64,000 nucleotides of DNA, taken from IMG/VR virus record IMGVR_UViG_3300035696_000001. One strand, given 5' to 3'. Every line of letters starts with the position of its first letter. Position 1 is the stretch's first letter. The notes beneath the pieces were generated by a model that had not been told where the DNA came from, ran no database searches, and saw only the letters and a program-made list of their open reading frames with translations. Source of the DNA: a virus. The position numbers and the translations under genes are program-made. Positions 14,122 to 55,118 of this stretch are shown in pieces.

Positions 14122-14831
14122 TGATGCGCCTTGGGGTTGTCCTTCTCGATATGTATGATTTTGGGGACAAAATCAGGCGTATGCCAGATATGGGGCGCTC
14201 TCCAATAGATACGGTTGGGCGGAAACGCATAGGCCGGTGAAAGAGCTATCGCCGGGGGGTTGTGTTCCAAGTAGCAGTTCCAGTGAGACTCATCTTGCCA
14301 TTTCGCCACGATGCCCCTGCCGTCGTCAATGTCGATGTTGCGGGCGAGAATCTTGCATACCGCCAAATACTCGGGGGCCGAGCCGCCTTGGAAGCAGCCT
14401 TGGTAGTAAAAACGGTGGCTTTGGAGAAACGCTGTCGATTCTCGTCTAGTTTCGACATTCGCCCCCTCGCCGCTGGGGATGTAGTTCCGCTCCACACCGG
14501 GGTGAAGCACCGCTGTAATGCCTTTAGCACAGAATTCTTCTTCGAGAATGGGGGCCACGACCCTCATGTCGATGTCGATGTGCATCAGGTAGTCATAACC
14601 GGCAAGCCAGTCCGCTTGGCTGGATATGGCATGGTAGCGCATCATGCCAGCACGCGGCCACCCCAAATGCGGGTACTCCACGACGCGGGCATCATACGGA
14701 GCTTTGCTGTCCGTGAACAGGACTGGGTCGCAGGGCGGGAAGAACTTCCGCAGCGACTCAATGAGGGGCGGAACGAAGCTCAGGAATTCTTGCTTTCCCG
14801 TCGCGATCAGGATTACGGCAATCTTGCTCAT
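14118..14831 (-). CDS. GT6-family glycosyltransferase (ABO blood-group alpha-1,3-Gal/GalNAc-transferase-like)
   Basis: Start at the internal Met MSKIAVIL, in an ATGA overlap. Aligns with the catalytic region of human GTA/GTB: YLMHIDIDM (DxD), RRESTAFLQSHRFYYQGCFQGG, KWQDESHWNCYLE and ALSPAYAFP. Confidence 0.8.
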   Translation of the reverse strand: MSKIAVILIATGKQEFLSFVPPLIESLRKFFPPCDPVLFTDSKAPYDARVVEYPHLGWPRAGMMRYHAISSQADWLAGYDYLMHIDIDMRVVAPILEEEFCAKGITAVLHPGVERNYIPSGEGANVETRRESTAFLQSHRFYYQGCFQGGSAPEYLAVCKILARNIDIDDGRGIVAKWQDESHWNCYLEHNPPAIALSPAYAFPPNRIYWRAPHIWHTPDFVPKIIHIEKDNPKAHQ

Positions 14832-15508
14832 AAATCGTAGCCGCCCCGGTGCAAAAGTAAGACACCGTGAAAAAACCTGTGCTGCCATCCGGGCACATCG
14901 AAAGGATAGCCCTGATCCACGAGATAGTGACTTACTTCGCACGGACAACCCAACTCGTGGCACGGGTACCCCCGGAACGAAGTCACAGAGCAGCGGTCAC
15001 AGTCAGTTGCCAGCCGCTTCACGTCGTCAACGACGACGAAAGAGTCTGGGGCAAATTTTGCGATGGCGGCAAGTTCAAGCGGAACCTGGAACTCGCATGT
15101 CGTATGGGCATTGTCTCCGAAACAATGAGCGTCGAGCCAGAATAGGACACGCTTGCCGCTCGGAGGCGATGCCCATACCAGTGTCGGCAGGAAGTTTGGC
15201 AGCCAAGCGCCGCTGGAGCCGTGAACGCAGTGAACATTGGGCGCATTTTTGAACCTCTCTGTTGCCTTCTGGTACAAATCGTCACTCAGTTCGATAGTCC
15301 AGATTTCATCAAAATGGTTTTGGCAGGCAGCGGGCATGTTTCCCTTGTACGTTCCCGTTTCGACGAGGACGTTCAGGTCAAAGTGCTCGCCCAGCGCGAT
15401 GAGCAAGTCTCTGCGCCAGTTGTCGGTGGGATGCACCATGTCCGTGCCGCCGTAGCTCTTCCAAAACAACAAATCATTCGTAGTTGCAGGATCGCGAAAG
15501 GTGAACAT
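14828..15508 (-). CDS. SAM-dependent O-methyltransferase (CmcI/Methyltransf_24-like)
   Basis: Start at the internal Met MFTFRD. VLVETGTYKGN and FWLDAHC motifs. Confidence 0.45.
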   Translation of the reverse strand: MFTFRDPATTNDLLFWKSYGGTDMVHPTDNWRRDLLIALGEHFDLNVLVETGTYKGNMPAACQNHFDEIWTIELSDDLYQKATERFKNAPNVHCVHGSSGAWLPNFLPTLVWASPPSGKRVLFWLDAHCFGDNAHTTCEFQVPLELAAIAKFAPDSFVVVDDVKRLATDCDRCSVTSFRGYPCHELGCPCEVSHYLVDQGYPFDVPGWQHRFFHGVLLLHRGGYDL

Positions 15509-16122
15509 TAAAGAACCCTCACGCTGACCGCCGCTTCCCCGCTGTCCCCGATTGTGTGCAGGGCAAGGTATTCGTAGGGGCGTCCTTGGATGAATTCCTG
15601 GAACGCCTTGAACTCGTGCTCCCGCCATCCGGGGTAATCCATGTACTCGTCGAACATGATGACCGTCCCCGGCACAATCTTGGGGCCGAAGTTGTCGAAC
15701 ACCGTTTTGGTGGACGAATAAATGTCGCAGTCGATGTGTATAAAAGAGATCGGACCGGGATGCGACCTTGCGAAATCGGGAAGCGTGTCCGCAAACAGGC
15801 CCTTTACGATCTCTACATTTTCTCGAACTTTGGGCACGTCGCATTTGTTGCGCCCCTTTGGGGCGTTGCCCGGCCAATCCTCTGGCAGCCCTTCAAAGGA
15901 GTCGAAGCCGTAAATCTTGGCGGGCGCTACCAAGTCCGCGAGGCAGTTCAAACTACCGCCTGTCGCCACGCCCAACTCCATGATCAGACCCTCTATGGAG
16001 CGGGCGTCAGTGGAATACCTGTAAAAGTAGTGGCGACCGCTGGGGCGGTAAGAAGAATCGTCTGTGGGAAAGAGAAAGCGTGCGACTGTTTTCCCAGAGA
16101 AATAAAGATTCGAGTCGCGCAT
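15508..16122 (-). CDS. TylF-family sugar O-methyltransferase
   Basis: ELGVATGGS, FDSFEGLPE and IHIDCDIYSST. Confidence 0.6.
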   Translation of the reverse strand: MRDSNLYFSGKTVARFLFPTDDSSYRPSGRHYFYRYSTDARSIEGLIMELGVATGGSLNCLADLVAPAKIYGFDSFEGLPEDWPGNAPKGRNKCDVPKVRENVEIVKGLFADTLPDFARSHPGPISFIHIDCDIYSSTKTVFDNFGPKIVPGTVIMFDEYMDYPGWREHEFKAFQEFIQGRPYEYLALHTIGDSGEAAVSVRVL

Positions 16123-16123
16123 T

Positions 16124-16960
16124 TTATAGTTTTATAGCCGGGACTGTACCCGGCTCCCCCATTTTCACCCACCGCTCGGGAACAACGTCGTCGTAGCGGA
16201 CGGGCGCGTTGCCGAACCATTTCTTGGGTGCGATCACGATTCGGTCGGCCTGTGTGTCACCGAGCCAAGCGCCCCACCAGCCAAACGAGCTATTAGGAAA
16301 GATGGCGTGGCGGCACAGGCTCATCAACCACAAGTCCTCGTGCTCGTGCCCCGGACTGTCGCCGAAGCCCATCTTGTTGTGGTCTACGATTGTGCAGTCG
16401 GCAAACCTCTCCCGGCACCCGTCTGGGTCGTCCGAAAAGACGAAGAATTTCGCATCGGCAATACGTTCGCGTACGTATTGCATCGCCTCTGCATAATAGT
16501 CCCACGTCATGTTGCCGTGGAACGCCGCCTGCCCCGCGCCGAGGTAGTCGGTTCGCCGCACATGGATGAACGCGCTCTGCGGCGCTGCCGCGATTGCGTC
16601 AGCAACCCGCTTGGTCTGCTCGCCGACCGGGTTTCTGAGCGTAAAATCCCTTCGGATCAGGTCGGGTTCTGGCTCAAAGTATTTTTCCGTCTGCCAGCAG
16701 CCCCGGAAATTTGTCCCGTTCGGTACTTTGTAAACTTGCGGATCGAAAATCAGGTGCGATTCGTCGAAAAAAGGCCCTCCGCCTCCCCCGAACCGTACGT
16801 CGCGGACATTGAAGACGTCAAGCCCGTAGGCGCGGTGGCATCCGGGCCCCAAACCTACCTTGTAGAACAAAACATCCTCCCTTCGCACCCGCGAAACGCA
16901 GCGACCGAAAGCGTACTGGAACATCTGGTTGCCCAGGCCTCCATTGAGCCTAACCAACAT
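16124..16960 (-). CDS. GT11 alpha-1,2-fucosyltransferase (FutC/WbsJ/FUT2-like)
   Basis: Canonical motif I GGLGNQMFQYAF. HVRRTDY, FVFSDD and SSFGWWGAWL motifs match H. pylori FutC and E. coli WbnK. Confidence 0.85.
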   Translation of the reverse strand: MLVRLNGGLGNQMFQYAFGRCVSRVRREDVLFYKVGLGPGCHRAYGLDVFNVRDVRFGGGGGPFFDESHLIFDPQVYKVPNGTNFRGCWQTEKYFEPEPDLIRRDFTLRNPVGEQTKRVADAIAAAPQSAFIHVRRTDYLGAGQAAFHGNMTWDYYAEAMQYVRERIADAKFFVFSDDPDGCRERFADCTIVDHNKMGFGDSPGHEHEDLWLMSLCRHAIFPNSSFGWWGAWLGDTQADRIVIAPKKWFGNAPVRYDDVVPERWVKMGEPGTVPAIKL

Positions 16961-17585
16961 TACCCATCTCCCTGTGCTTCTTGTACATCCACGACACGTT
17001 GAAAGTTCGTCCTACAGTAGCGGAACAAAAGTGCGATGTTATCTCGTCGTTGTCACCGTACCGGATGTCGTCTTTCGCGGTGAGCCGACCTTCTGCGACC
17101 GCCGCCCCCACTATTTGGCCGATCCATTTGTCCTCGGCCCACGTATCAGGTTCCAGGCGCACGACCACCTCCATGGCACGCCGCGACATCCAATAGCCTG
17201 CCCCGCCCGATGCCCACGCATACCCGCCCTCCCTGACCCCCGGCACGCCTATCGGCCCGTTGAACCTGCCGATTTGGTCATATCCCTGCGGGTCGTAGGC
17301 AGCTAGCTTGGACATTACTGCGTAGGTGTCCGTGTCCGCTAAAAAAGCGTGGTCGTAGTCGTGCGCCAGTACCCACCCGAATATGGCGCGGGTCTTGTGC
17401 GGCAAGTCCAGATAGGCGTCGCCGCAATCCAACGGCTCCTCGTCCGGCGCAAGTTCGCCCCCGCCCCGCCCAACAAAAAACCTGTAATCAACTGGGCAGT
17501 TCTTCAGCCACGTGTCACGTACGGCTTGGTTGAATCCGTTGCGGCAATCGCGATAGCAGCTTTTTACGGCAATCAGTCTTTTCAC
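16950..17585 (-). CDS. Fringe-like (GT31-type) glycosyltransferase, paralog 1
   Basis: LIAVKSCYRD..VRDTW and DTDTYA DxD. ATGA overlap with the upstream paralog. Confidence 0.55.
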   Translation of the reverse strand: MKRLIAVKSCYRDCRNGFNQAVRDTWLKNCPVDYRFFVGRGGGELAPDEEPLDCGDAYLDLPHKTRAIFGWVLAHDYDHAFLADTDTYAVMSKLAAYDPQGYDQIGRFNGPIGVPGVREGGYAWASGGAGYWMSRRAMEVVVRLEPDTWAEDKWIGQIVGAAVAEGRLTAKDDIRYGDNDEITSHFCSATVGRTFNVSWMYKKHREMGNVG

Positions 17586-18223
17586 AGTATGCCTTTCGCC
17601 TTTTCGTGCACGGCATACAGGTTTGCCCTGTCACGTAGGTTCGTCAAAGAATTCCGTTCGTGGTTGTGACAGGTGATGACGTCGTTGTCGGGCTGGGGGC
17701 CTACCATTGTTCCCCTGTCAGTGCCGATCCTGTACCGGGGATCATGGAACGGTAGGATTCCGGCTTGCCTGAGCACGTAGCGCACCCACCAATCCTCAGC
17801 GCCGGAGCAAGCCGCAATTTCCCCCCTCGCCAAGAGCGCCTCCATCGCCCTGCGGCTGAGCCAATATCCCGTTCCGCCAAAGACGCTGTCGTCCCCCTGT
17901 ACGAATCCCGAATAGTCGTGCCTCTCAAAGCCCGAGGCGAGAAGGCGCGGGACGTGGACGTAGGTGTCCGTATCGCACCGGAACAGGTTGTCGTAGCCGT
18001 TCGCGAGCGCCCACGAAATTGACCCGAGTATTTTCAGACGAAGCTCAGAGCCGCCGCCATCGGGCACGTCCAAGAAGGTCTCGTCTGCTTCCGCATCCGG
18101 CTCCTTGGGGACTCCCAAAAAGAACCTGGTGTCCGCAGCCGGGGCGCTCAGCCACGTGTCACGGATTTGCGCATGGCACCAGCGGTCGCGATGGCAACTC
18201 TCTATGGCGATGAGGGGTTTCAC
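17582..18223 (-). CDS. Fringe-like glycosyltransferase, paralog 2
   Basis: GTG start in a GTGA overlap. VKPLIAIESCHRD..IRDTW and CDTDTYV. Confidence 0.55.
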   Translation of the reverse strand: MKPLIAIESCHRDRWCHAQIRDTWLSAPAADTRFFLGVPKEPDAEADETFLDVPDGGGSELRLKILGSISWALANGYDNLFRCDTDTYVHVPRLLASGFERHDYSGFVQGDDSVFGGTGYWLSRRAMEALLARGEIAACSGAEDWWVRYVLRQAGILPFHDPRYRIGTDRGTMVGPQPDNDVITCHNHERNSLTNLRDRANLYAVHEKAKGIL

Positions 18224-18930
18224 AGCGCACCCGCCGAGAGTTGGTGCGCCCTGTACATCATGCTCGGGTTGTAGGCACCCGTGCCGCAGCCGAGGTGTAC
18301 GCTGATCCCGTCGTATCCGTAGAGTTGGAGACGGTCGCCCTTGAACAGGTAACGGGGGTCGTGGTAGCCGTGCATCCCCAAGGGAAGCAGGATATTTGGA
18401 ATCCAAAGGTCTTCGGCTGGGTTGCCCTTGTTGTCGAGCCGCCTCCAGTCTAAGGGTGCGGCAACGATGGCTTCCATTGCGCGTTTGCTAGTCCAATAGC
18501 CGCATCCCCCCGAACAATAGGGGTAGACCCCTCGGGGATCGCAGTACTCGCTCAGGGTTTGCCCGTCCGCTGGCAGATAGCCTTCCTGCGGATGCAGGGG
18601 AAAGTGGCCCACGTAGTCACTCCGGTCAAAGCCGGAGACGAGCAGACGTCTCGGCGACAGGTAGGTGTCGCGGTCAGCCTTGAACACCCATTCATATTCG
18701 TGCTCAAGCGCCCATTTCCGTATGGCTTGCGACTTTTCCGGCAGGTGGGGGTAGTCATCCGGCACGTCAAGACGCTCCTCGTCGGGGAGCAGCGTCCGGC
18801 TGCCTTGCCCCACGAATATCTTGTAGTCCAGCCCCGGCACCATGTGCTGCATCCACGTGCGCCGCATGGCGTCGTGGCAGCCGTTTGCCGCGTCGCGCTC
18901 GCAACTCATCACGCCTATGAGAATTTTCAC
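18220..18930 (-). CDS. Fringe-like glycosyltransferase, paralog 3
   Basis: GTG start in a GTGA overlap. VKILIGVMSCERD..MRRTW and ADRDTYL. Confidence 0.55.
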   Translation of the reverse strand: MKILIGVMSCERDAANGCHDAMRRTWMQHMVPGLDYKIFVGQGSRTLLPDEERLDVPDDYPHLPEKSQAIRKWALEHEYEWVFKADRDTYLSPRRLLVSGFDRSDYVGHFPLHPQEGYLPADGQTLSEYCDPRGVYPYCSGGCGYWTSKRAMEAIVAAPLDWRRLDNKGNPAEDLWIPNILLPLGMHGYHDPRYLFKGDRLQLYGYDGISVHLGCGTGAYNPSMMYRAHQLSAGAL

Positions 18931-19676
18931 GCCCCCACCCAATCCTTGATGCCCTCTTTCCTCAGCATAATCGTGTGCCCTGCTGCGAAAGCCCGCCTGC
19001 GGAACCGCCCGTAGCGGGGGTCCTGCACGTCCGCCCCGGTGCCCAGCTTGAACGTGTCCACGCTCCAGCCGGGCAGCCACACCGTGACCCTGCCCGCCTT
19101 CTTCATGTGCCAGAAGAACTGCCCGTGCTCCCCGCCTATGGGGCGGACCTCCTCGTCCCACGGCACCCCGCGCAGCGTCGATGCGCGTGCGAGGAACGCG
19201 TTCACCACGAGGTCGCACCGCTGGTAGGGCGACCCGTCCGGCACCAGGCGGATTTCGCGGATCACATTCTTTTCGGCGTCAAAAACAAGATTTGATTCGT
19301 ACGGGTTGCCGTCCACGCGCCCGCCCACCAAGTCGATTTCGGGGTGCGTGTCGAGGATGTCGGCGGCTTTGGTCAAGCTTTCTTTGAACCCTTTGGTCGC
19401 GAAGTCGAAGTCGTCAGCGCCGCAGTACCAGTAAGGCGTCTCGCACAGGAGCACGCCACGGTTGCGCTTCGCCGTCAAGCCCGAGTCGAACGGCAACCAA
19501 GCCCACTGGGTGTTGAGCATGGGCGCACGCGGAGTCAAGTCCATGCCGCTCCCGCTGTCGTCCACGACGATCACTTGGCATTCCGGCAAGCTCATGCGGA
19601 CGCTGTCGAGGCACGCCCGCAGATAGCCCGGACGTAAGAAGGAGGATATAAACACTGAAATTTCATTAAGTGGCAT
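18927..19676 (-). CDS. GT2-family glycosyltransferase
   Basis: ISVFISSF, VVDDSGSG and GLTAKRNRG GT-A motifs. Confidence 0.65.
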   Translation of the reverse strand: MPLNEISVFISSFLRPGYLRACLDSVRMSLPECQVIVVDDSGSGMDLTPRAPMLNTQWAWLPFDSGLTAKRNRGVLLCETPYWYCGADDFDFATKGFKESLTKAADILDTHPEIDLVGGRVDGNPYESNLVFDAEKNVIREIRLVPDGSPYQRCDLVVNAFLARASTLRGVPWDEEVRPIGGEHGQFFWHMKKAGRVTVWLPGWSVDTFKLGTGADVQDPRYGRFRRRAFAAGHTIMLRKEGIKDWVGA

Positions 19677-19809
19677 GTGCCCTCACTTTCTTTTCGCGGT
19701 AACGGCGTGCTTTCTCTGCTCCAGTCAACGGTCTCTCACCTATGCGACGATAAGTACGGTGTCCTCCTATCCTCGCGGAGCCACATGTACGTGTAGTAGA
19801 CCTTGTCCA

Positions 19810-20481
19810 TCACAAATCTCCCCCCACCAACTGCTGGATGGTCTCGAACGGAACCGGCTTGTATTCGTTGCTGGTAAAGTTTTTTCGGCAGGCGTTCGTG
19901 TCGTGTATGCTGGCAATGACGAGCTTGGGGTCGAACAAATCCAATTTCGCCTCGGCAGGCAGTTTCCTCTGCAAATTATAGTCGGCACCCGCAACGATAT
20001 GGTCGAACTTGTTCTGCTCCCAGACGGATTTCCGAAACGCAATAGCCCCCAGCCAGCCGATGGACTTCGGGCTGGTGTACTGCCATGCCTTCTGCATGTC
20101 CTTCCGGTAGTAGTACAACGTGGACGTGCCCGTCATCTGCACCTGCTGCCGGTCGATCATGGGCTGTATCTGGCGTGCAAGGCGGTCTGTTGAATAGACG
20201 TCGTCATCGTCCCAAACGAGGAGAAAAGCCCCAGACGCCAGTTCGATGCATTGGTTGAGTTTGATCCCATGGTTGTAAACGTTCGATTGCCATGTGTACT
20301 TGATCCTCGGGTCATCCGGCAGCAGGGGCTTGACCGGCTCGGTCGAATCGTCAAGTATCAAAAGCTCCACGACCCAGTCAGCGGGGTACTGCTGCGCCTG
20401 AAAGCAGCGGATCGCACGCGGGATGAACCCACAGCGGTTGCGCGTGGGCATTAACGCTGATACGATTAAGGGGCTAGGCAT
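19810..20481 (-). CDS. GT2-family glycosyltransferase
   Basis: VSALMPTRNR and LVWDDDDV. First gene of the island, 133-bp gap to the next gene. Confidence 0.65.
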   Translation of the reverse strand: MPSPLIVSALMPTRNRCGFIPRAIRCFQAQQYPADWVVELLILDDSTEPVKPLLPDDPRIKYTWQSNVYNHGIKLNQCIELASGAFLLVWDDDDVYSTDRLARQIQPMIDRQQVQMTGTSTLYYYRKDMQKAWQYTSPKSIGWLGAIAFRKSVWEQNKFDHIVAGADYNLQRKLPAEAKLDLFDPKLVIASIHDTNACRKNFTSNEYKPVPFETIQQLVGGDL

Positions 20482-20667
20482 GGCATAACTCGCAGTTTGG
20501 GTTGGCCACCAACCCCACGGGCTTGCCGTCCACGAAGACTTCGTATGTTCTGCCGGACACCTCGGGCATTCGAATTTCCCCCTACTTAAAATACGAAAAA
20601 CCAGTAGATTGCCGGGCGTCGGGCTGGTATGCTAGGGATATTATGGTAAGGATCAAGGAGCCTGCCA
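20482..20667. promoter_or_regulatory. Divergent intergenic control region with inverted repeat CTACT-N16-AGTAG (20582..20607)
   Basis: Strand-switch point between the minus-strand glycan island and the plus-strand block. Lower GC; TATTAT and TATGCT -10-like hexamers. Carries the SD and ATG of 20668. Confidence 0.3.
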
Positions 20668-22749: not shown

Positions 22750-24174
22750 ATGGCATCACTCAACGCTGCAACCCGTACCGCAAAGACCCCGCTCCGCACC
22801 GCCGAGGGCGGCAGGGCGGTCGGCATCGGCAAGGTCGCGCAGCTTCAGCGCCTGCTGAACGCCTGCCTCCTGTGGGAGGACAACTTCTACTCGGACGGCA
22901 AGAGCGTCGCCGACCTCATGCGCGAGCTTGTGCGCGAAGTCCCAGCCGAGAAGGTCGCGGAGCTTGCGATCAAGGCCCGCGAGGAGCAGAAGCTCCGCCA
23001 TGCCCCGCTGCTCATCGTCTACGAGATGACGCTCGCCTCGAAGGCTCACCGCGAGCTTGTCGGGGAGACGCTCACCCGCGTGATCCAGCGCCCGGACGAG
23101 ATCACCGAGTTCGTCGCCATCTACTACAAGCTCGGCGGCGGGAAGCGCCCGCTCTCGAAGCAGGTCAAGAAGGGCCTTGCCGCTGCCTTCAACAAGTTCA
23201 ACGAGTATGCGCTCGCAAAGTACAACCGCGACAAGGACGTCAAGCTCGCGGACGTGCTGGCGCTCGTCCACGCCAAGCCGAAGGACAGGGAGCAGGGCCT
23301 CCTCTTCGCGAAGCTTGCGAACAAGGACCGCCTGCCGAAGAAGACCAAGTTCGCGCAGTTCCCGGTGGCCGACACCTACCGCTCGCTCGCGAAGAACTTC
23401 AAGGGTCTGGAGACCCCGGACACTTGGGAGGTCGCGCTCTCTGGCGGCGCGGACAAGAAGGAGGCCTTCGAGCGCCTCATCCGCGAGGACAAGCTCGGCG
23501 GCCTCGCGATGATCCGCAACCTGCGCAACATGCAGGAGGCGGGCGTCTCCGACGCGGTCATCAAGCAGGGCCTTGCGCAGATGAACGCCGAGCGCGTGCT
23601 CCCGTTCCGCTTCATCGCGGCGGCGAAGTACGCCCCGAAGTTCGAGGCGCACCTTGAGGAGGCGATGTTCAAGTGCCTTGAGGGGCACCCGAAGCTGCCG
23701 GGCAAGACCGTGCTGCTCGTGGACGTTTCCGGCTCGATGGATCAGCATGTTTCCTCGAAGTCCGACCTGATGCGCGTGGACGCTGCCGTCGCCCTTGCGA
23801 TGCTCCTCCGCGAGGTCGGCGAGGACGTGGTCGTGTATTCGTTCTCGGAACGGGAAGTCCTCGTCCCGACCCGGCGCGGGTTCGCCCTCGCCGAGGCGAT
23901 CAAGGGGTCGCAGCCCCATTCGGGCACGTACCTCGGCCGCTCCGTGACCGCCGTTGCCCGCGCCGAGGGCGACGCCGACCGCGTCATCGCGATCTCGGAC
24001 GAGCAGGCGCACGACAACGTCTCGAACCCATTCCGCAAGACCGAGTCGAAGGCGTACATGATAAACGTGGCAAGCGAAGCTCACGGAGTCGGATACCGTA
24101 ATGGTTGGAATCACATCGATGGATGGTCTGAGGCTGTGGTAGACTACGTAGTTGCTGAAGAGGCAACAAAATAG
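22750..24174 (+). CDS. rsr: Ro60/Rsr ortholog (TROVE domain + vWA/MIDAS)
   Basis: N-terminal TROVE-like region (LLWEDNFYSDGKSVAD..HAPLLIVYEM). C-terminal vWA domain with the MIDAS motif VLLVDVSGSMD. The overlapping ORFs 22743..23657 and 22756..24114(-) are frame artefacts. Confidence 0.8.
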   Translation: MASLNAATRTAKTPLRTAEGGRAVGIGKVAQLQRLLNACLLWEDNFYSDGKSVADLMRELVREVPAEKVAELAIKAREEQKLRHAPLLIVYEMTLASKAHRELVGETLTRVIQRPDEITEFVAIYYKLGGGKRPLSKQVKKGLAAAFNKFNEYALAKYNRDKDVKLADVLALVHAKPKDREQGLLFAKLANKDRLPKKTKFAQFPVADTYRSLAKNFKGLETPDTWEVALSGGADKKEAFERLIREDKLGGLAMIRNLRNMQEAGVSDAVIKQGLAQMNAERVLPFRFIAAAKYAPKFEAHLEEAMFKCLEGHPKLPGKTVLLVDVSGSMDQHVSSKSDLMRVDAAVALAMLLREVGEDVVVYSFSEREVLVPTRRGFALAEAIKGSQPHSGTYLGRSVTAVARAEGDADRVIAISDEQAHDNVSNPFRKTESKAYMINVASEAHGVGYRNGWNHIDGWSEAVVDYVVAEEATK

Positions 24175-29354: not shown

Positions 29355-29585
29355 TTGGCGACGACAGACCTTGACGGCGCGAATCTGCTGCTCCTGCGTG
29401 AGGGCATGCTGGTGACCCTCACCCTCGGCGACAAGAGCTACACCGGCGTCCTTAGGATGCGCAGGGAAGGCGTCCGAGAGTCCTGGTTCATAGCGCTGAT
29501 CTATCGGGCTGGGGACGACGTCCACGAAATCAAGATTCACAGGCGCGAAGGCGCGGTGGAGATCACTGATAAGAAGGAGGTTTGA
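29355..29585 (+). CDS. Hypothetical protein
   Basis: 76-aa ORF after a 270-bp lower-GC non-coding stretch (29089..29354). Confidence 0.35.
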   Translation: MATTDLDGANLLLLREGMLVTLTLGDKSYTGVLRMRREGVRESWFIALIYRAGDDVHEIKIHRREGAVEITDKKEV

Positions 29586-29816
29586 ATGACCCCCTGCGGG
29601 TGCCCGCCAGAGACGTTCTGGACGCTGCTCCATGACGCGGCGCATTGGGAATTCGAGCTTTTCCTGATGCTGGTCTTTGACGGCATCATCGGCGCGATTG
29701 CGTGGCCGTTCATAAAGAAGCACTGGCAGCACCACGTTGAGAGGGACACGGCGGAGGGGCGATGAAGAAGGGGGAAAGTCGAGTCATTATCAAGAGCGAC
29801 GGTCTGGAGGAAAGCA

Positions 29817-30902
29817 GTGGGCGAGTTTACCGAGCAACGGTTTGATTATTCTGCGGGACGCGAAGATGCCCCTGAATTGACTATTATGGTGGGGATCAGC
29901 GGCTCGGGGAAATCTACGCTCGTTAAGCAATGGATAAACCGTGGGCGTGGCGACATCGTGCGCCTGAACCGGGACAGCTTGCGTGCCATGCTGTATATAG
30001 ATGTGCCTTGGAGTAATAATTTGGAGAACTTAACGCGTGACGTGCAAAAGCACGCTGCGATTTTAGCGCTCCAACGGGGTAAGGATGTGATTATTGATGA
30101 TTGTAATCATCTTCGTCAAGTTCGTCAAAAATGGGAAGAGTTTGCCAAGGAAAACCGGGCGAAGTTTCGTATCGTAACAATGACTACAGACCTCGACGTT
30201 TGCATCAAGCGGGATTCCAAGCGCGAGGGTAAGGAAAAAGTTGGCGAGGGTGTGATTCGCCGCCAGTACAAGGATTTGCATGCTTTGGACAGGACTTCTA
30301 GGAAGGAAACGGCTCCGGCGAAGCTGACCCGCCCGTACTTCGAGCGCACCGAGTACCTCAAGAACGGTGGGTGGGTCACCCGCCTGCCCAACGCCAAGTG
30401 GGTGCTGGTGGACGTTGACGGCACGCTGGCGAACCATGTCGGCGTGCGCGGCCCCTACGACGAGTCCCGAGTGCTTGAGGATTCGGTGTGGGAGCCTGTC
30501 GCCGAGATGGTGCGCTCGCTGTACCCTAGCCACAACGTCTGCGTGGTGTCCGGCCGCCACGACTTTTGCGGCGACGACACGTGCGACTGGCTGGAGATGA
30601 ACGCCGTCCCGTTCGACCACATACTGATGCGGTACAGCGGGGACAACCGCTCTGACATTGTCATCAAGCAGGAGCTTCTCGACGAGCTTTCGGCGGTGAT
30701 CGGCAAGGAGAGCATAGCGTTCGTGATCGACGACCGCCCTCGGGTCTGCGAGATGTGGAGGAGCAACGGCCTCGCGGTGAAGCAGGTTTTCGCCGGGGAG
30801 GTCTTGGAAAACCCGACTCTTAAACATGCGGACGGATGCGCCTATGAGAAGCAAACGGGCTACCGGCGCTGCCCGGACTGCGGGGCTTTAGAGTATTTTT
30901 AG
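29817..30902 (+). CDS. pnkp: Polynucleotide kinase-phosphatase (T4 Pnk/PseT-like)
   Basis: N-terminal P-loop kinase GISGSGKST. C-terminal HAD 3'-phosphatase LVDVDGTLA..VVSGR. Same domain order as T4 Pnk. GTG start with GGAGG SD. Confidence 0.8.
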   Translation: MGEFTEQRFDYSAGREDAPELTIMVGISGSGKSTLVKQWINRGRGDIVRLNRDSLRAMLYIDVPWSNNLENLTRDVQKHAAILALQRGKDVIIDDCNHLRQVRQKWEEFAKENRAKFRIVTMTTDLDVCIKRDSKREGKEKVGEGVIRRQYKDLHALDRTSRKETAPAKLTRPYFERTEYLKNGGWVTRLPNAKWVLVDVDGTLANHVGVRGPYDESRVLEDSVWEPVAEMVRSLYPSHNVCVVSGRHDFCGDDTCDWLEMNAVPFDHILMRYSGDNRSDIVIKQELLDELSAVIGKESIAFVIDDRPRVCEMWRSNGLAVKQVFAGEVLENPTLKHADGCAYEKQTGYRRCPDCGALEYF

Positions 30903-30946: not shown

Positions 30947-31738
30947 ATGTTCGTTTACCTGATCGTCAACGACGTGAATCTGAAGATTTACGTCGGCAAG
31001 ACCATCAGCAAAAATCTACAACTTTACTTTCAAAAGAAGCTTTGGGACGCAGAGCACCCCGAGTCCTCCCGAGGAAATTCCCATCTTTTTGCTTCTGTTC
31101 GTAAATACGGACGCGAACACTTCCACATCTTTCCGCTGTTCGAGGGTCAAACTAACGAAGAAATCTGCGTCCATGAGAAGCTACTCATAAAGGTTCTCGC
31201 TGTGCAGAATTCTGAGATTGGTTACAACATCTGCCGTGGTGGTGAAGGGCGCATGGGGTCGCACACCGCCGAGACCATCGTCAAAATTAGTAAGTCTAAT
31301 AAAATTACAAAGTCTGACCAGAAATATCGTGCTAAAGCCAGTGAAACCATGAAACAAACATGGAGAATCAATCCGCAAAATCGGATTAGGCTTAGTGAAT
31401 CTACTAAAAATAAATGGTCTACTCCTGAGTTTCGTGCAAAAGCCAGCGGAGGTATAAAGCAACGGTATATAACCGATCCGAATTATCGCTCCCAAATTTC
31501 CGAGGCGGGTAAAAAGCAGTGGATTGAAGCCGATCCTATAGAGCAAGTTAAAAGGGTAGAACGGTTAGTCAAAGCTACGAAAAGAAGGTGGGTAAAGTAC
31601 AGGGAAGAAACCAAAGAACTGACCGCACAAATTGTCAATTTACATCAAAAGGGATGGACTCAAAGGGCCATAGCGCATGAACTGAGCATAGGGAAAAGTA
31701 CAGTTCATAGCCGCTTAAAACAGACAAGAGATTACTAG
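30947..31738 (+). CDS. GIY-YIG homing endonuclease with NUMOD3 repeats and C-terminal HTH
   Basis: VYLIVNDVNLKIYVGKT (GIY) and YNICRGG (YIG). Repeated SHTAETIVKISKSN, ASETMKQTW and LSESTKNKWS NUMOD3 motifs. Markedly AT-richer than its flanks. Confidence 0.75.
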   Translation: MFVYLIVNDVNLKIYVGKTISKNLQLYFQKKLWDAEHPESSRGNSHLFASVRKYGREHFHIFPLFEGQTNEEICVHEKLLIKVLAVQNSEIGYNICRGGEGRMGSHTAETIVKISKSNKITKSDQKYRAKASETMKQTWRINPQNRIRLSESTKNKWSTPEFRAKASGGIKQRYITDPNYRSQISEAGKKQWIEADPIEQVKRVERLVKATKRRWVKYREETKELTAQIVNLHQKGWTQRAIAHELSIGKSTVHSRLKQTRDY

Positions 31739-32315: not shown

Positions 32316-33434
32316 ATGAAGCTTTTACTCAAGAATATCCTGCCCTTCGACCTGTTCAGGCGCATGCTTGACGAGGGATACGTCCGCTCGCAGGTGCATC
32401 CCCTTTATCCTGAGTTGGTTGTCTTCAACTACACCGAGGCGGCCCAATTTGACCGTGCGTGGAATGAGGCGACCAACGTGTGCCGCGGCCTGGTCGTGCG
32501 GCTCGCAAACGGCGTGCTGGACGACGACGCCGAGGTGTTGGCGCGGCCTTTCAACAAGTTCCATAACCTGAACACTGCCTACGTGCCGGAGACTATGGAG
32601 GCGAGCCTGCCGGACGAGGCACCGCTTGTGACCACGAAGCTTGACGGCTCGATGGGCATCGTGTATTCGTACGACGGTCAATGGTGGGTCGCGACTCGCG
32701 GGTCGTTCGACTCGGATCAGGCACGCCGGGCGACAGCGTGGTACCGCCAGCACATAGCCGTGGGGTTTCCCCAGAACTGGCCCGACGGCGTTACGCCCGT
32801 GTGCGAGATCATCTACCCGGAGAACCGGATCGTCGTGGACTACGACTTCGAAGGATTGGTGTTGCTCTCGATGATCGAGAACGCAACCGGGCGCGAGCTT
32901 GCCCGCGACGAGGTGGAGGCATGGGCGAGAGTCAACGTGCTCCAGATCGTTGATAAGTTTGACAAGACGCTAGCGGAGTGCGCGGCTGAGAACGCGCTGA
33001 ACGAGGAGGGGTACGTTTTGACTTACTCGAACGGCGTGAAGGTGAAGGTGAAGTTCGCGGAGTACGTGCGGCTCCACCGCATCCTTACTGGGTTGAACCC
33101 GAAGGCGATCTGGGAGATGCTTGCCCAGAATTTCGGGGCGGGGGTGGATGCGATCCTTGCAGACCCGAAGATGCCCGTCACCTTCATCGAATGGTTCAAG
33201 GGGTGGGTGGATCAGCTTCGCAGGAAGTACGCGGAGATCGAGCGGGAGGCGCAGGCTGTGTTCGCCGCGCGTCCGCAGTCGCCCGTCCGCAAGGATCAGG
33301 CGCTCTACTTCATGCAGACGCCGCAGCACAAGTCTGTCCTGTTCGCAATGCTCGACGGCAAGGACTACGCCGGGATCATTTGGGACCGCATTGCGCCGAA
33401 GGGCAACCAGACGTTCAAGAAGGACGGAGAATAA
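32316..33434 (+). CDS. rnl: RNA ligase (T4 Rnl-like, ATP-dependent)
   Basis: Motif I TTKLDGSMG (KxDG), motif IV EEGYVL and motif V VKVKVKF. Partner of Pnkp. Confidence 0.7.
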   Translation: MKLLLKNILPFDLFRRMLDEGYVRSQVHPLYPELVVFNYTEAAQFDRAWNEATNVCRGLVVRLANGVLDDDAEVLARPFNKFHNLNTAYVPETMEASLPDEAPLVTTKLDGSMGIVYSYDGQWWVATRGSFDSDQARRATAWYRQHIAVGFPQNWPDGVTPVCEIIYPENRIVVDYDFEGLVLLSMIENATGRELARDEVEAWARVNVLQIVDKFDKTLAECAAENALNEEGYVLTYSNGVKVKVKFAEYVRLHRILTGLNPKAIWEMLAQNFGAGVDAILADPKMPVTFIEWFKGWVDQLRRKYAEIEREAQAVFAARPQSPVRKDQALYFMQTPQHKSVLFAMLDGKDYAGIIWDRIAPKGNQTFKKDGE

Positions 33435-33580
33435 AAGTTCCCGTGCGGTAACATTTCGTTGGTTTTGCCCCAAAACCGACAGAATGCTCCCGTGCGGGAA
33501 CATTGTATTCCAAAGGAACGTTATACTCCAAGTAACTGATCCTGCTGGGGTTATTCCCTTTTCCCTTTCTGGCCTTTTCA

Positions 33581-33600
33581 GGGGACTCCGCTGTATACTA
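33581..33600 (+). promoter_or_regulatory. Repeated promoter-like motif copy 1 (GGGGACTCCGCTGTATACTA)
   Basis: Extended -10-like TGTATACT. 30 nt shared with copy 2. Lies 19 nt before the ATG at 33619. Confidence 0.35.
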
Positions 33601-33618
33601 TAGGCGGAGAAACGATAA

Positions 33619-34995
33619 ATGAAGAAATCTACGGTCTTTTGGATGGTCGTGGCCGCCCTCGCTGTCCGCATCGCTTTCATGGTGGCGTTTGATACGTATC
33701 ACTTCGTTGGCGTAGACGACATGACCAAGGTCGGTGAAACGACGAACATCGCGGCGTCCATCGCCAGGGGGCACGGATTCAGTTCACCGTTCGGCGGCGA
33801 ATACACGGGGCCGACAGCTTGGATTGCCCCCGTCTATCCGTACTTCATTGCCCTTGTGTTCCACTTCTTTGGGATATTCTCGAACGCCTCAGCGGCAGTC
33901 GTTTTCACGATTCAAGCACTGTTTTCCGCCTTGACTGTCATTCCGATTTTGGGCATCGCCAATAAAACTGTCGGGAAGCGTTCCGGTTTGGTAGCCGCTT
34001 GGACATGGACTCTTTTCCCTTGGTTTAGCAAATGGGCATTAACTTGGGAGTGGGAAGTCAGCTTGAGTGCGTTGCTCCTCTCCTTAATCGTTTGGTACAT
34101 GCTCAGTCTGGAAAAGGCAGCCGCCGTTAAGTCGTGGGCTGGGTTTGGAATCCTAGAGGGATTCGCTCAGCTAGTCAATCCGGCACTGAGCGCCGTTCTC
34201 CCGGTTGCATTTGCGTGGCAGGTCTACAAACTGCGATTCAACCGCAAAGAGTGACTCAAGCCGGTCGTGGCGCTGCTGGCGTGCGTCGCCACAATAACAC
34301 CTTGGGTAGTGCGAAATCGCGTTGTGTTCGGACAATGGGTGTTCCTGCGCGGCAACTTCGGTTACGAGTTCGCCCTTGGCAACTACCATAACAGCTTCGG
34401 GCGCGGGTGGGGAGGGTTTCACCCTTCGGGTAACTTGCGCGAATACGACGACTACAAGCGCATGGGCGAGGCGGCTTACATCGAATCCCATAAAGAAAAA
34501 GGCCTCCAGTTTGTGCGCCAGTACCCGGTTGAATTCGTTACGCTAACAGCGAAACGGGTTTCCTACTTTTGGGATGGGAGCGCCGTCGGTTACCGGGCAC
34601 CCGTCGCCAAGCATTGGATTCCGTCCAGCTTCGGCGTGATCTCATTATTGCTGCTTCCAGCCCTGCTGATTACGTACAGGAATCGGGTACCGGCATGGCA
34701 AGCGTTCTTCGGTGTGTTTCTGCTGTACCCGGCACCCTATTATCTTACGTTCAGTCAATTGCGTTACCGGCACGCCGTTGAGCCTCTCATGGTAATTCTA
34801 ATCTCTTACGCCGTGGTCAACGCCATAACTGCGATCTATCAAAGTTTTTTAGGTTTGCGTCTTCCTAGCCTTTTCGGGGGACTCCGCTGTATACTACCGA
34901 CGAAAGCAGCGACGTCTGCGGCACCCGCTGCCCGAAGTCGGAGAAATCCGAAGGGCAAACGTCCTGCAAATTTTATGCTCAAGGACTCGTTATGA
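33619..34995 (+). pseudogene. GT-C fold membrane glycosyltransferase (ArnT/PMT-like) interrupted by a single in-frame TGA at 34252
   Basis: ORFs 33619..34254 and 34267..34995 are in the same frame, separated only by TGA 34252..34254 (NRKE*LKPVVALLA). Together ~455 aa with multiple TM helices and a first-loop VGVDD..GE acidic motif, typical of ArnT/PMT_2. May be a readthrough/recoded gene, a pseudogene or a sequencing error. Confidence 0.45.
34876..34896 (+). promoter_or_regulatory. Repeated promoter-like motif copy 2 (GGGGGACTCCGCTGTATACTA)
   Basis: Same 30-nt element as 33571..33600. Lies ~95 nt upstream of the CCA-enzyme gene start. Confidence 0.3.
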
Positions 34996-36317
34996 GTTGG
35001 AAGCGAGAAAATTTCATCTCGTCATTCCAGATTGCCGCGCACGCCAAGGTGATGTACAAGCTTGAAAACAAGGGCTTCGAAGCTTTCCTTGTCGGCGGCT
35101 GCGTGCGCGACCGGCTTCTCCAACGGCAATCCAGGGACTTCGATGTGACGACCGACGCCACGCCCGACCAGATTCGTGCCATCTTCCCTCACACCATCCC
35201 GGTCGGCGCGAAGTTCGGCGTCGTGGTCGTGCTGATGGACGGCGTGCAGGTCGAAGTTGCAACGTTTCGAAGCGACGGGACTTACACTGACGGTCGGCGA
35301 CCGGACGAAGTCACGTACAGCAGGAACGCAAAGGATGACGTCGTCCGCCGCGATTTCACCATGAACGGCTTGCTCATGGACTCCCTCGGCGACATTATCG
35401 ACCACGTTGACGGTCAGGAAGACATCAAGCACGGAATCATCCGCGCCATCGGCGACCCAAACGTGCGCTTCGCGGAGGATGCGCTCCGCATGATGCGGGC
35501 TGTCCGCTTCGCGGCGCAGCTTGGCTTCAAGATCGAGGAAAAGACCCTTGAAGCGATCAAGAGCAACGCCCGGCTCCTGTCCGCCATCAGCCGGGAGCGC
35601 ATCGCGATGGAGCTTTTCAAGATGCTTTCCGCGCCGTTTCCGCTCAAGGGGATCGTGCCTTTCATTGCGACGGGGCTGTTCCGCTATGCCTTGCCGGAGC
35701 AGTTCCCCGACCATGTGAACATGGCGCGAACCATACAGCGGTTCGGCACGTTCGAGGCGAAGGACGCCATGCTCGGCATGGCTATGCTATTCGCCGACAT
35801 CAACGACTTCTACTGTGGGGGGCTTGCGGATTACCTCAAGCTGTCCAACGAGCAAAAAGACGAGCTTATTTGCATGAAGAGCCACGTTCATAATTTCCAG
35901 CACCACTTAACCGGGGCGTACCGCATGACTGAGGCGCGGATCAAACGCAACCTGCGGTATCCGGGCGTCAGGCTGGCGCTGGAGATCATGACGCAGGACG
36001 AGGTCATGGGCAAGACCGGCTTCGGCATCGAGGCGCTGATGGCGTTCGTGCTCAAGGTCAAGGCGTACAAACCCGAGGAGATCAAGCCGAAGCCGCTGGT
36101 GACGGGCAAGGACTTGATTGACGCTGGCATCCCACCGGGGCCGATCTATACGAGCATCCTGTTCGACATTGAGAGCCACCAGCTTAACGGCGTGTTCACG
36201 ACGAAGGAGCAGGGCATGGAGTTCGTCCGCGAGCGCGTACGCCAAGGAGCGGGTCTGCATGGGCTTGAGTGGGTTTATACGGGCTTGTCCGCAACGGAAG
36301 CGCGGGAGCTAGAATGA
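34992..36317 (+). CDS. cca: tRNA nucleotidyltransferase (CCA-adding enzyme), class II
   Basis: Head-domain motifs LVGGCVRDRLL, RDFDVTTDA, VATFRSDG and DVVRRDFTMNGL (RRD). Confidence 0.8.
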   Translation: MSWKRENFISSFQIAAHAKVMYKLENKGFEAFLVGGCVRDRLLQRQSRDFDVTTDATPDQIRAIFPHTIPVGAKFGVVVVLMDGVQVEVATFRSDGTYTDGRRPDEVTYSRNAKDDVVRRDFTMNGLLMDSLGDIIDHVDGQEDIKHGIIRAIGDPNVRFAEDALRMMRAVRFAAQLGFKIEEKTLEAIKSNARLLSAISRERIAMELFKMLSAPFPLKGIVPFIATGLFRYALPEQFPDHVNMARTIQRFGTFEAKDAMLGMAMLFADINDFYCGGLADYLKLSNEQKDELICMKSHVHNFQHHLTGAYRMTEARIKRNLRYPGVRLALEIMTQDEVMGKTGFGIEALMAFVLKVKAYKPEEIKPKPLVTGKDLIDAGIPPGPIYTSILFDIESHQLNGVFTTKEQGMEFVRERVRQGAGLHGLEWVYTGLSATEARELE

Positions 36318-36880: not shown

Positions 36881-37615
36881 ATGGACAAATGGCCTTCGCT
36901 CCTCATGCTCACACGGCATGGATACTCCGTCGCCAACGAGCGCAAGAACAAGGCTAAGCAGGCGGGTGCAGACTCGTGGGCCGGTATCGCCCGCGACCAG
37001 GACGCGGAACTGACCGCGCTGGGGCACCAGCAATCATTCGAGCTTGGCGTGATGATCGGAAAGTCCGTCAGCATCAATTTCAAGTCCGACCTTCCAGAAG
37101 TTATCATCACGTCGCCGCACCGCCGCGCCAAACAAACCACCGCAGGCATCGTACGGGGCGTTCAAAGCACCCACCCGGACTACAACCCGACCGTCGTCGT
37201 CGAGGAGCGCATCCGAGAGATCGAGTTCGGGATCATGGACGGCATCGACCGCGCCACGTTCCGCAAGCTCTTTTCATCCGAGGCGGATCGCCGGGAGCGC
37301 GACGGGAAGTACTATTACCGCCCGCCCGGAGGCGAGAATCGCCCCGACGTGCGCCTGCGGGTGCATTCCGTCCTCGACACACTGAACCGCGACTATGTCG
37401 GTAAGAAGGTTCTGATCGTCTGCCACAGCGTCGTCGTGCTTGCGTTCAGGAGCCTGATAGAGCGCTGGGAAGAGGACGAATACCTTCAAGTGGACAAGGA
37501 AGACGACGTCAAGAACTGTGGTCTTACGATCTACGACCGCATCGACTACCGGAAGCTCAAACTCCGGGAATACAACAAGGTCGCTCCTGCATCTAACCCG
37601 GTAGAGGCTCCATGA
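36881..37615 (+). CDS. Histidine phosphatase superfamily protein (PGAM-like)
   Basis: LTRHGYS (RHG catalytic motif) and a second His in CHSVVVLAF. Possible RNA 2'/3'-end phosphatase role in the RNA-repair context. Confidence 0.6.
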   Translation: MDKWPSLLMLTRHGYSVANERKNKAKQAGADSWAGIARDQDAELTALGHQQSFELGVMIGKSVSINFKSDLPEVIITSPHRRAKQTTAGIVRGVQSTHPDYNPTVVVEERIREIEFGIMDGIDRATFRKLFSSEADRRERDGKYYYRPPGGENRPDVRLRVHSVLDTLNRDYVGKKVLIVCHSVVVLAFRSLIERWEEDEYLQVDKEDDVKNCGLTIYDRIDYRKLKLREYNKVAPASNPVEAP

Positions 37616-38304: not shown

Positions 38305-38322
38305 CTCCCCGCTGTATACTAC
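38305..38322 (+). promoter_or_regulatory. Repeated promoter-like motif copy 3 (CTCCCCGCTGTATACTAC)
   Basis: The -10-like TATACT ends 6 nt before the ATG at 38327, which implies a leaderless transcript. Confidence 0.35.
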
Positions 38323-38326
38323 TGAC

Positions 38327-38590
38327 ATGATCGAGCCTGCTGCATGGAACCCGCGCTACCTTGCTTACTGCCGGGCGCATAAAATGACCCCGGAGCAGAT
38401 GATGGAGCATGATCGCGAGAAATGGGAGGGCGGCTGCATGTGCGGCTTTATCCTCTGGCACACCGCCAAGCTGAGCGAGGCGCGGCGCATACACCGAGAA
38501 TTCTTCCACATCGAGATCAGCGGTACTGCCGGGGGCTTGCTTGACCACAAGGGCTACGATGAGTGGCTCAACGAGAGTGTGGCTAACTGA
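38327..38590 (+). CDS. Hypothetical protein
   Basis: 87-aa ORF immediately after the promoter-like motif. Confidence 0.4.
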   Translation: MIEPAAWNPRYLAYCRAHKMTPEQMMEHDREKWEGGCMCGFILWHTAKLSEARRIHREFFHIEISGTAGGLLDHKGYDEWLNESVAN

Positions 38591-53291: not shown

Positions 53292-53954
53292 GTGAATTTC
53301 CCGTACAACAAAGTCCTTGAGATCAGGGCGCAGTACCAAGCCGGGAAGCTCGACCGCGAGGCGGCGAAGGAACGGCTTGCGTACCTGCTTGACTTGAAGG
53401 ACGACAGCGACTTCTGCGAGGATGCCGTCAAGGCTCAGGTCGATAGCGGCGGCTGGGGGGAGCTTTGGTCAAAAAACTATCGGAGCTACGGCCCGCTCCT
53501 GCGGCTGTCCGATGTGTGCAACGTCCTGAGGCTGTGGGCTAGGGTGTATGCCGCGCCGCTTCCCGGCGACGACGAACACAAAAGGCAGGACCGCGAGAAG
53601 CTGCAAGAGACGGCGAGCTACGTGGACATGCAAATCTCGAAAAGCTGCCTGCTCGACCGCCTCTTCCTCCAAGAGGAAGGGCTGCGCACTGTCCCTTGCC
53701 CCGAGCACAAAGGGTACTGGAGCGGCTGCAACTGGGACGCCCTTGGCTGTGCGTGCCGCAATGGGGCGAACGTGACGGGCTGGCTCCCTGCCGGGGAATC
53801 CACCGGGTACTCCGACGACCCCGAAGCCCCGCCGTGCGATTTCTGCGGCAAGCCGCCGCTCAGGCAGGGGCTGTGGAGCCGCCGGATAGACGGCAAGCAT
53901 GGGCACCCCGAGTGCCTGGACAAAAATCCCATGGCCCCGAAGGACGCAGCATGA
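53292..53954 (+). CDS. Hypothetical Cys-rich protein (possible metal/Fe-S client)
   Basis: 220 aa with CPEHKGYWSGCNWDALGCACRNG and CDFCGKPP...HPECLDKNP. Confidence 0.45.
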   Translation: MNFPYNKVLEIRAQYQAGKLDREAAKERLAYLLDLKDDSDFCEDAVKAQVDSGGWGELWSKNYRSYGPLLRLSDVCNVLRLWARVYAAPLPGDDEHKRQDREKLQETASYVDMQISKSCLLDRLFLQEEGLRTVPCPEHKGYWSGCNWDALGCACRNGANVTGWLPAGESTGYSDDPEAPPCDFCGKPPLRQGLWSRRIDGKHGHPECLDKNPMAPKDAA

Positions 53955-55099: not shown

Positions 55100-55118
55100 A
55101 CTGCCCAATTAGTTTAAC

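Follow-up and report, generated by a model that had tools for sequence, protein, structure and literature searches.

A probable recent nonsense mutation in a GT-C glycosyltransferase gene acquired by a very large phage-like genome

When a single in-frame stop codon divides a membrane enzyme gene into two open reading frames (ORFs), is the codon decoded, do the two parts make separate proteins, or has the gene been broken? This question is raised by a locus within a 64,000-nucleotide stretch of viral DNA (hereafter the window), in which an ORF of 211 codons starts at the ATG at 33619 and ends at a TGA (34252-34254). Beyond this TGA the frame remains open for 246 more codons, until a second TGA at 34993-34995, and the first start codon after the interruption is a GTG at 34267, which opens an ORF of 242 amino acids (34267..34995). 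The two ORFs (33619..34254 and 34267..34995) share one frame and have the TGA as their sole separator, an arrangement that was first pointed out in a preliminary description of this DNA and that we confirmed in the sequence. The size of 211 amino acids given there is correct, whereas the downstream ORF has 242 rather than 243 amino acids when counted from the GTG, and the protein joined by readthrough has 458 residues rather than about 455.

By itself, this layout is within chance because adjacent ORFs in the same frame are common in the window, where several instances occur. Three ORFs at 29355-30902 that share a frame and are separated by TGA codons were also considered, and these are ordinary neighbours; the polynucleotide kinase-phosphatase (PNKP) has the same length as in a related phage contig (L004, a 332-kb IMG/VR viral contig). 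It is homology that makes the two-ORF arrangement significant, as evident by a protein domain match and by full-length homologues that span the stop. For annotation, a single interrupted gene should be recorded in place of two proteins, by merging the two ORFs and flagging the result. The features of the locus are collected in the table.

Table. Features of the interrupted glycosyltransferase gene and its surroundings, in window coordinates.
Feature	Position	Strand	Basis or remark
T4 Rnl1-type RNA ligase gene, ancestral left neighbour of the insertion	32316..33434	+	Pfam RNA_lig_T4_1, E 6.5e-16
Left copy of 36-nt direct repeat, promoter-like motif CCTTTTC-N13-GTATACTA	33565..33600	+	33/36 identity
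Shine-Dalgarno GGAG, 10 nt 5' of ATG 33619	33605..33608	+	read from sequence
N-terminal 211 codons of GT-C glycosyltransferase	33619..34251	+	PMT_2 34.6 bits; alignment A1
In-frame TGA, context GAG TGA C, at conserved Trp codon	34252..34254	+	
C-terminal homologous half, residues 213-410, fully family-like	34255..34848	+	
Non-homologous, low-confidence C-terminal tail	34849..34995	+	homologues end at about residues 410-440
Right copy of 36-nt direct repeat, promoter-like motif	34861..34896	+	
CCA-adding tRNA nucleotidyltransferase gene, ancestral right neighbour	34992..36317	+	Pfam PolyA_pol, E 1.5e-34

The joined protein matches the Pfam family PMT_2 (PF13231) with 33.1 bits against a cut-off of 26.1, and the matching segment (residues 70-227) runs across the stop at position 212; the N-terminal half alone scores 34.6 bits against the same cut-off. 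An AlphaFold2 model made from an alignment of 28 sequences (A1) reaches a pTM of 0.80, and the top Foldseek matches in the PDB are PglB, AglB, ArnT and STT3 (probability 1.0, E values of about 4e-4 to 1e-3), with 12-16% identity and TM-scores of 0.37-0.50. The family does conserve the acidic motif VGVDD..GE in the first loop, which had been noticed from the letters of the DNA: every sequence of A1 has D33 and E40, and at least 90% of them have D34. These three residues and most of the PMT_2 domain are carried by the N-terminal 211 codons, and the C-terminal half retains the invariant residues from P228 to P389. The model, the structural matches and the domain match bear out the earlier proposal of a transferase with multiple transmembrane segments: the joined protein is a GT-C-fold glycosyltransferase that falls in PMT_2 at the superfamily level. 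By analogy with such enzymes, an intact protein would be expected to take a polyprenyl-phosphate-linked sugar as donor and to transfer it to a periplasmic acceptor.

The preliminary label 'ArnT/PMT-like' holds at the level of the superfamily and not below it. A search of NCBIfam models yielded noise only and no match to ArnT, and a search of PDB sequences with a family profile recovered neither ArnT nor any GT-C chain, only a spurious match to FliQ. The likeness to ArnT exists at the fold level only, with 13-15% identity in the Foldseek alignments. Among Pfam domains of the PMT type, PMT_2 alone was found and PMT (PF02366) was not; the STT3 model stays below its threshold (17.6 bits, cut-off 24.5), and structures of Pmt1/2/4 appear only at E values above 0.4. 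The protein is thus not demonstrably an orthologue of ArnT (GT83) or of the protein O-mannosyltransferases, since no family-specific model reaches threshold. In a library of viral structures, the sole match was to an uncharacterised protein of a Nitrosopumilus virus, and at E 1.1e-3 it is borderline.

A collection of about 15 billion proteins yielded 368 homologues, the closest at 67-68% identity, and a scan of metagenomes returned homologues at 52-57% identity only. The best 120 of the 368 are all single proteins (401-514 amino acids) that align without a gap across the position of the stop, and none is split there, which speaks against the possibility, raised at the outset, that the homologues are two-gene systems. 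All 18 matches that come from genomes belong to Acidobacteriota (Terriglobia, Terriglobales, subdivision 2, or Ca. Acidiferrum). These bacterial PMT_2 proteins are annotated as 'glycosyltransferase family 39 protein' or 'ArnT-like' (for example P0001 and the metagenome-assembled genome QHYS01000028.1) and are 52-68% identical to the phage protein over the full length. The phage and Terriglobia copies have in common the motifs VDD...E, GFSSPF..YTGPTAW, FPWFSKW, NP, PW..RNR, RGWG, YFWDGS and RYRH..EP, and they are alike in the GC content of third codon positions (GC3). The phage copy differs from its bacterial homologues in lacking an N-terminal extension of about 35 amino acids, in having a replaced C-terminal tail, and in carrying TGA in place of a tryptophan codon.

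What stands at the interrupted position in other members of the family is clear. The column is tryptophan in 101 of the 120 best homologues (alignment of 121 sequences) and cysteine in three, and it is tryptophan in 25 of the 27 homologues in the smaller alignment A1. The DNA of the closest homologue (P0001) has AGG GAA TGG CTC AAG at this site and the window has AAA GAG TGA CTC AAG, with the flanking codons CTC AAG the same in both. From the TGG of this homologue and the tryptophan column, it follows that the lesion is one G>A transition at 34254 that turned TGG into TGA. Comparison of the residue at this site had been proposed as a check on the nature of the interruption, and the outcome fits a recent nonsense pseudogene and, equally, readthrough that inserts tryptophan.

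The most trivial explanation would be a sequencing or assembly error hiding a true TGG codon, which is only a single base away. However, an identical 211-amino-acid product is encoded on at least seven contigs from JGI, ENA and Logan assemblies, which represent three pipelines (megahit in the case of ENA), and the loci that were fetched are 100% identical to the window over this region. The 242-amino-acid product is likewise present on a contig of 196,020 nt, and a contig of this length, from ERZ27256877, derives from a slightly different strain with a 15-nt indel relative to the window elsewhere. In the second member of the cluster of 242-amino-acid products (P0123), the sole difference is V/M at the position of the GTG start, and no intact allele with TGG is present in the collection of about 15 billion proteins. 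The allele comparison covers assembled contigs from one population, in which heterogeneity or a TGG allele carried by a minority would not show. Because the allele recurs across JGI, ENA and Logan contigs, a random error or an artefact of a single assembler is unlikely. An error, an option that the preliminary description had kept, is therefore highly improbable given the same sequence in at least seven contigs that include samples differing slightly elsewhere.

If the TGA is real, a cell might still read it as an amino acid. A far-reaching version of this idea is that a UGA-suppressor tRNA encoded elsewhere in the genome makes TGA mean tryptophan at some stage of infection, in the manner of genetic code 4. 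The TGA does fall exactly on a conserved tryptophan codon, the 64 kb plus about 10 kb that were inspected come from a genome of possibly 0.9 Mb, and the window holds no late or structural genes that could reveal recoding of TGA. On the other hand, TGA is the commonest terminator in the window, ending about 40 of 84 greedy ORF calls, and it terminates both the glycosyltransferase frame itself and the CCA gene. The CCA enzyme that ends at its TGA has 441 amino acids, compared with 446 for the homologue in a related phage, and several ORFs end in four-base ATGA overlaps, for example at 9822-9825, 14118-14121, 34992-34995, 37612-37615 and 60897-60900. No tRNA gene was found in the window or in about 10 kb of flanking loci, and no other in-frame TGA within the 64 kb is supported by homology. 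Two further places, 26306 (minus strand) and 8061/8969, had looked like possible cases, but the frames concerned lie antisense to, or are alternative frames of, better-supported genes. These observations uphold the earlier judgements that TGA is clearly a stop elsewhere and that genome-wide recoding is unlikely, and we regard a suppressor tRNA as a very improbable explanation, slightly ahead of an error.

Insertion of selenocysteine, for which an in-frame UGA is the starting point, is effectively refuted. Homologues have tryptophan in this column, and cysteine in just three of 120. Downstream of the TGA, the folding of the RNA is on a par with that of shuffled sequence (z = 0.11), so there is no stable hairpin directly downstream beyond chance, and Rfam gave no match to a SECIS, even at E values of up to 5, or to any other element, in agreement with the first impression that no SECIS was obvious. 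In the AlphaFold2 model, the stop position falls in a short loop (residues 209-213) between helices 188-208 and 214-237, and the flanks of this loop (YKLRFNRKE-W-LKP) are rich in positive charge. By the positive-inside rule the loop is probably cytoplasmic. The site is a predicted inter-helix loop rather than a redox site.

The state of the sequence on the two sides of the stop bears on whether the gene is still maintained. Where at least 90% of the sequences share a residue, the phage protein deviates at 2 of 65 columns before the stop and at 3 of 67 after it, and intact homologues deviate on average at 2.5 and 2.3 such columns, respectively. The part downstream of the stop thus shows no detectable decay, which points to a nonsense mutation of very recent date or to selection that persists. 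Because both halves keep the family-conserved residues in the way that intact homologues do, the lesion appears to be recent. In our preferred reading, to which we give a probability of roughly 0.74, a nonsense mutation has recently struck an acquired accessory gene, which would be newly inactivated or strongly hypomorphic at most. An absence of decay is also to be expected of a gene that still functions, and to this extent it counts against inactivation.

The alternatives are, in descending order, readthrough with tryptophan, a re-initiated enzyme in two pieces, a suppressor tRNA, a sequencing error and selenocysteine. The first, which is unlikely, holds that the stop is leaky, that tRNA-Trp reads it at a low rate and restores the wild-type residue, and that a little full-length functional enzyme is made, in which case the allele would be tolerated or even favoured as a low-dosage control of a membrane protein. 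A UGA followed by C is the weakest and leakiest stop context for termination in E. coli, and near-cognate readthrough of UGA inserts tryptophan. The context here is TGA C, the ancestral residue is tryptophan, the downstream half is free of decay, and the allele appears fixed in every sampled assembly. However, TGAC serves as the ordinary stop of seven other ORF calls in the window, the folding score given above reveals no structure that would promote readthrough, and recency accounts equally well for the lack of decay. In addition, with one population sampled, conservation of the TGA over evolutionary time lacks support. A more ambitious proposal, which we consider improbable, is that the TGA serves as a dosage device, so that a captured host GT-C enzyme is expressed only through UGA-C decoding that inserts tryptophan, either by near-cognate readthrough or by a phage suppressor tRNA active during one phase of infection. 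Were this true, the phage would remodel the surface of its host with a membrane enzyme made in small quantity and at a set time.

A further possibility is that ribosomes re-initiate at the GTG at 34267 and that the fragments of 211 and 242 amino acids assemble into an active GT-C enzyme. This GTG is in the same frame and only 12 nt past the stop, and the break would fall in the short, positively charged inter-helix loop of the model (YKLRFNRKE|LKP), which could be a favourable place to split the protein. Against such an assembly, none of the best 120 homologues is split and all have at least 400 amino acids, the GTG lacks a convincing Shine-Dalgarno sequence (the closest candidate, AAGAG, is about 15 nt upstream), and the conserved tryptophan and four neighbouring residues would be lost. 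A functional split enzyme is therefore quite unlikely, less so than the suppressor tRNA but more so than the dosage device.

The surroundings of the gene indicate how it was acquired. The RNA ligase encoded on its left is 72% identical to that of the related contig L004, and the CCA enzyme on its right is 60% identical to its homologue in L004/L005. The glycosyltransferase is absent from the corresponding locus of L004, where the order is RNA ligase, a terminator-like hairpin, one promoter-like motif (CCTTTTTC...GTATACTA), a GGAGAAAAC leader, an ORF of 78 codons and the CCA gene. The leader of the glycosyltransferase gene is similar to this leader of the small ORF (GGAGAAAAC), and the promoter-like motif occupies the same place in both phages, as a single copy in L004. 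In the window the motif is part of a 36-nt repeat (family D1) whose two copies match at 33 of 36 positions and are spaced 1296 nt apart; its 20-mer core occurs twice in 64 kb, where zero occurrences are expected. A partial third copy of the repeat is also found within the 64 kb. The right copy falls within the non-homologous C-terminal tail of the ORF, at a distance of 96 nt from the CCA gene. Judging from its position, the motif in the left copy probably drives the glycosyltransferase gene, and that in the right copy is placed such that it could give the CCA gene its own transcription, separate from that of the interrupted gene; a scan with the sigma-70 consensus does not call the left motif as a promoter.

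Composition also sets the insert apart. Its GC3 is 0.64-0.65, compared with 0.80-0.83 for the neighbouring phage genes and 0.61-0.69 for the bacterial homologues, and in the C-terminal tail GC3 falls to 0.47. There the frame crosses sequence of the phage intergenic type until its TGA overlaps the ATG of the CCA gene; the last 48 residues of the phage copy are unrelated to the homologues, and pLDDT is below 50 for residues 415-458. The gene was acquired horizontally as a single-gene cassette, and two copies of a promoter-like element bracket it. Other genes in the window encode PNKP, a Ro60/TROVE protein, a His-phosphatase, ThyX, Thg1, a helicase and a homing endonuclease. The phage-like genome to which the window belongs is very large and may come close to 0.9 Mb (894 kb).

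A recent nonsense mutation in an acquired gene can be laid out as a series of events. A very large phage would have captured a stand-alone GT-C gene, of a family seen so far only in Acidobacteriota (Terriglobia), as a single-gene cassette inserted between the genes for RNA ligase and the CCA-adding enzyme. The insert would have come to sit behind a promoter-like motif and a ribosome-binding site of the phage, with the motif duplicated at its far side. Later, the G>A transition at 34254 would have changed the codon for Trp212 to a stop, and ribosomes would now normally halt after 211 residues. The resulting fragment would have the acidic first loop and would lack the C-terminal transmembrane helices and a large loop region. 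Because the missing parts carry many family-invariant residues, activity would be lost or nearly so. Even if the early stop has polar effects, the downstream copy of the promoter-like motif may maintain expression of the CCA gene. We infer the recency of the mutation, the loss of function and an acidobacterial host.

Viewed in this manner, the event is an ordinary one: an accessory gene acquired by a phage from its host has gained a nonsense mutation, and the finding would be of interest only if the TGA proved to be decoded. Nevertheless, the locus may let one compare the states before and after a gene was gained between duplicated promoter-like repeats, and then see its rapid loss. It also suggests Terriglobia as the group in which a very large soil phage probably has its host. 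The window gene is the only phage-borne copy that was found of this widespread, uncharacterised family of Acidobacteria. A megablast search with the 5.4-kb locus against GenBank phages and a tblastn search with the joined protein against 50,697 GenBank phage genomes produced no match, motif scans of 2.9 million IMG/VR contigs (with the protein and with the family alignment) revealed no phage-borne homologue, and none of the PHROG families matches the glycosyltransferase.

A role in a glycan pathway had been suggested by an island of sugar-nucleotide genes at about 2.4-20.5 kb in the window, with the enzyme thought to attach the glycan made by this island to protein or lipid. The glycosyltransferase gene is about 13 kb away, in an RNA-repair cluster, and what is known of it does not favour this proposal: it is a solitary foreign insert, absent from the related phage locus, interrupted, and bacterial in codon composition. 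Nor do the bacterial homologues lend support, as the gene is a single ORF in the three chromosomal loci examined and has no conserved glycan-pathway neighbours there. Because the homologue genes stand alone among unrelated housekeeping genes, no substrate can be inferred from their context, and we know of no member of this PMT_2 family in Acidobacteriota that has a known substrate.

Among characterized proteins, PglB (5OGL), AglB (5GMY), ArnT (5F15/5EZM) and STT3 have the same GT-C transmembrane fold as the joined protein, with an acidic pair in the first external loop, and this likeness leads one to expect an active site that faces the periplasm. Unlike PglB or ArnT, the phage protein has no C-terminal periplasmic domain. 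Phages also carry membrane glycosyltransferases in the Gtr systems for serotype conversion (GtrA-GtrB-GtrC, as in P22, SfV and epsilon34), which use lipid-linked sugar to modify the cell envelope. These systems could serve as a functional analogy for why a phage might carry such a gene, namely for superinfection exclusion or the masking of a receptor. Membership in the Gtr group was considered and rejected: no GtrA or GtrB gene lies beside the gene, whose neighbours encode RNA ligase, the CCA enzyme, PNKP and a homing endonuclease, and there is no PHROG or GenBank phage match. Moreover, Gtr genes sit beside attP in temperate phages, whereas the gene described here is interrupted and is located in the RNA-repair cluster of a huge phage.

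Parallels also exist for the form of the insertion and for the stop. Morons and the promoter-early stem-loop cassettes of T4-type phages are gene cassettes flanked by promoters, and the insert may resemble such cassettes: it is a lone foreign ORF between two promoter-like copies, missing from the corresponding locus of a relative and atypical in codon composition. It differs from them in that 64 kb contain only the two flanking copies and one partial third, with putative promoter activity. The A1 protein of phage Qbeta is made by UGA readthrough, tRNA-Trp decoding UGA at a low rate. As in that gene, the stop could be decoded by tRNA-Trp, since it stands at a tryptophan position in the weak UGA-C context; unlike that gene, it has no stimulatory structure, and the product of readthrough would be an ordinary enzyme and not an extended isoform.

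Two bacterial homologues of the glycosyltransferase (P0024 and P0034) carry an insertion of ~48 amino acids (columns about 324-372 of the 28-sequence family alignment, A1), which falls exactly at the loop that holds the stop codon in the window. The conserved Trp is replaced by Thr in both proteins. The interrupted loop tolerates large changes. A second truncated gene may also be present, as the 290-aa UDP-glucose/GDP-mannose dehydrogenase-family ORF consists of N-terminal and central domains alone and lacks the UDP-binding domain that normally makes up the C-terminus. A GFO/IDH/MocA gene begins immediately after this ORF.

The sugar-nucleotide and glycan island also includes several NAD-dependent epimerase/dehydratases and a GFO/IDH/MocA oxidoreductase. 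Its combination of SIS, HAD, kinase and transaldolase genes suggests that a heptose-type pathway is encoded. The window is likewise dense in genes for RNA repair and maturation, with seven located between positions 22750 and 62979 (the genes from Ro60/TROVE-vWA to Thg1 in the table below). GC3 is very low (0.47) in the GIY-YIG/HTH homing-endonuclease-like gene. Although a Ro60 homologue is present, searches of the 64 kb revealed neither a Y-RNA-like family (Rfam, gathering thresholds) nor tRNA genes (ARAGORN).

Features of the window
Feature	Coordinates	Strand
Sugar-nucleotide/glycan island	about 2400-20500	minus
UDP-glucose/GDP-mannose dehydrogenase-family ORF	7140-8012	minus
Transaldolase-family protein (island)	8009-8962	minus
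SIS+HAD fusion (island)	8722-9825	minus
GHMP kinase (island)	9822-10802	minus
GT6 (island)	14118-14963	minus
GT11 (island)	16124-16960	minus
GT2, weak match (island)	18927-19676	minus
Ro60/TROVE-vWA protein	22750-24174	
PNKP (kinase + HAD phosphatase)	29817-30902	
GIY-YIG/HTH homing-endonuclease-like	30947-31738	
T4 Rnl1-type RNA ligase	32316-33434	
22-nt direct repeats AAAGTTCCCGTGCGGTAACATT and AATGCTCCCGTGCGGGAACATT, spacing 49 nt	33434-33504	
CCA-adding enzyme	34992-36317	
Histidine phosphatase	36881-37615	
Third copy of promoter-like core, CCGCTGTATACTAC	38308-38329	
Thg1	62071-62979	

A protein cluster look-up places the identical 211-aa N-terminal product on public contigs of up to 894,233 nt. 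If the longest of these is composed entirely of phage sequence, the phage would have a genome of exceptional size. Its nearest relative in IMG/VR, at 332 kb, derives from the same JGI sample (3300033405). Comparison of window positions 53382-64000 with loci fetched from other samples (L019 and L021) reveals two differences: the ERZ27256877 contig carries a 15-nt indel, and ERZ27256913 a single SNP. Given this slight strain variation between samples, the phage population has therefore been sampled more than once.

The third copy of the promoter-like core resides just 6 nt 5′ of ATG 38327, where external pipelines place the start of a gene, and would yield a leaderless transcript if TATACT serves as the -10 element. 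Upstream of the glycosyltransferase gene, a perfect hairpin (GGTTTTG-CCC-CAAAACC) lies between the two 22-nt repeats, within a segment of roughly 105 nt located between the RNA ligase stop codon and the promoter-like motif. This segment may constitute an operator pair or another regulatory module, and it has no counterpart in the related phage L004 (a 332-kb IMG/VR contig).
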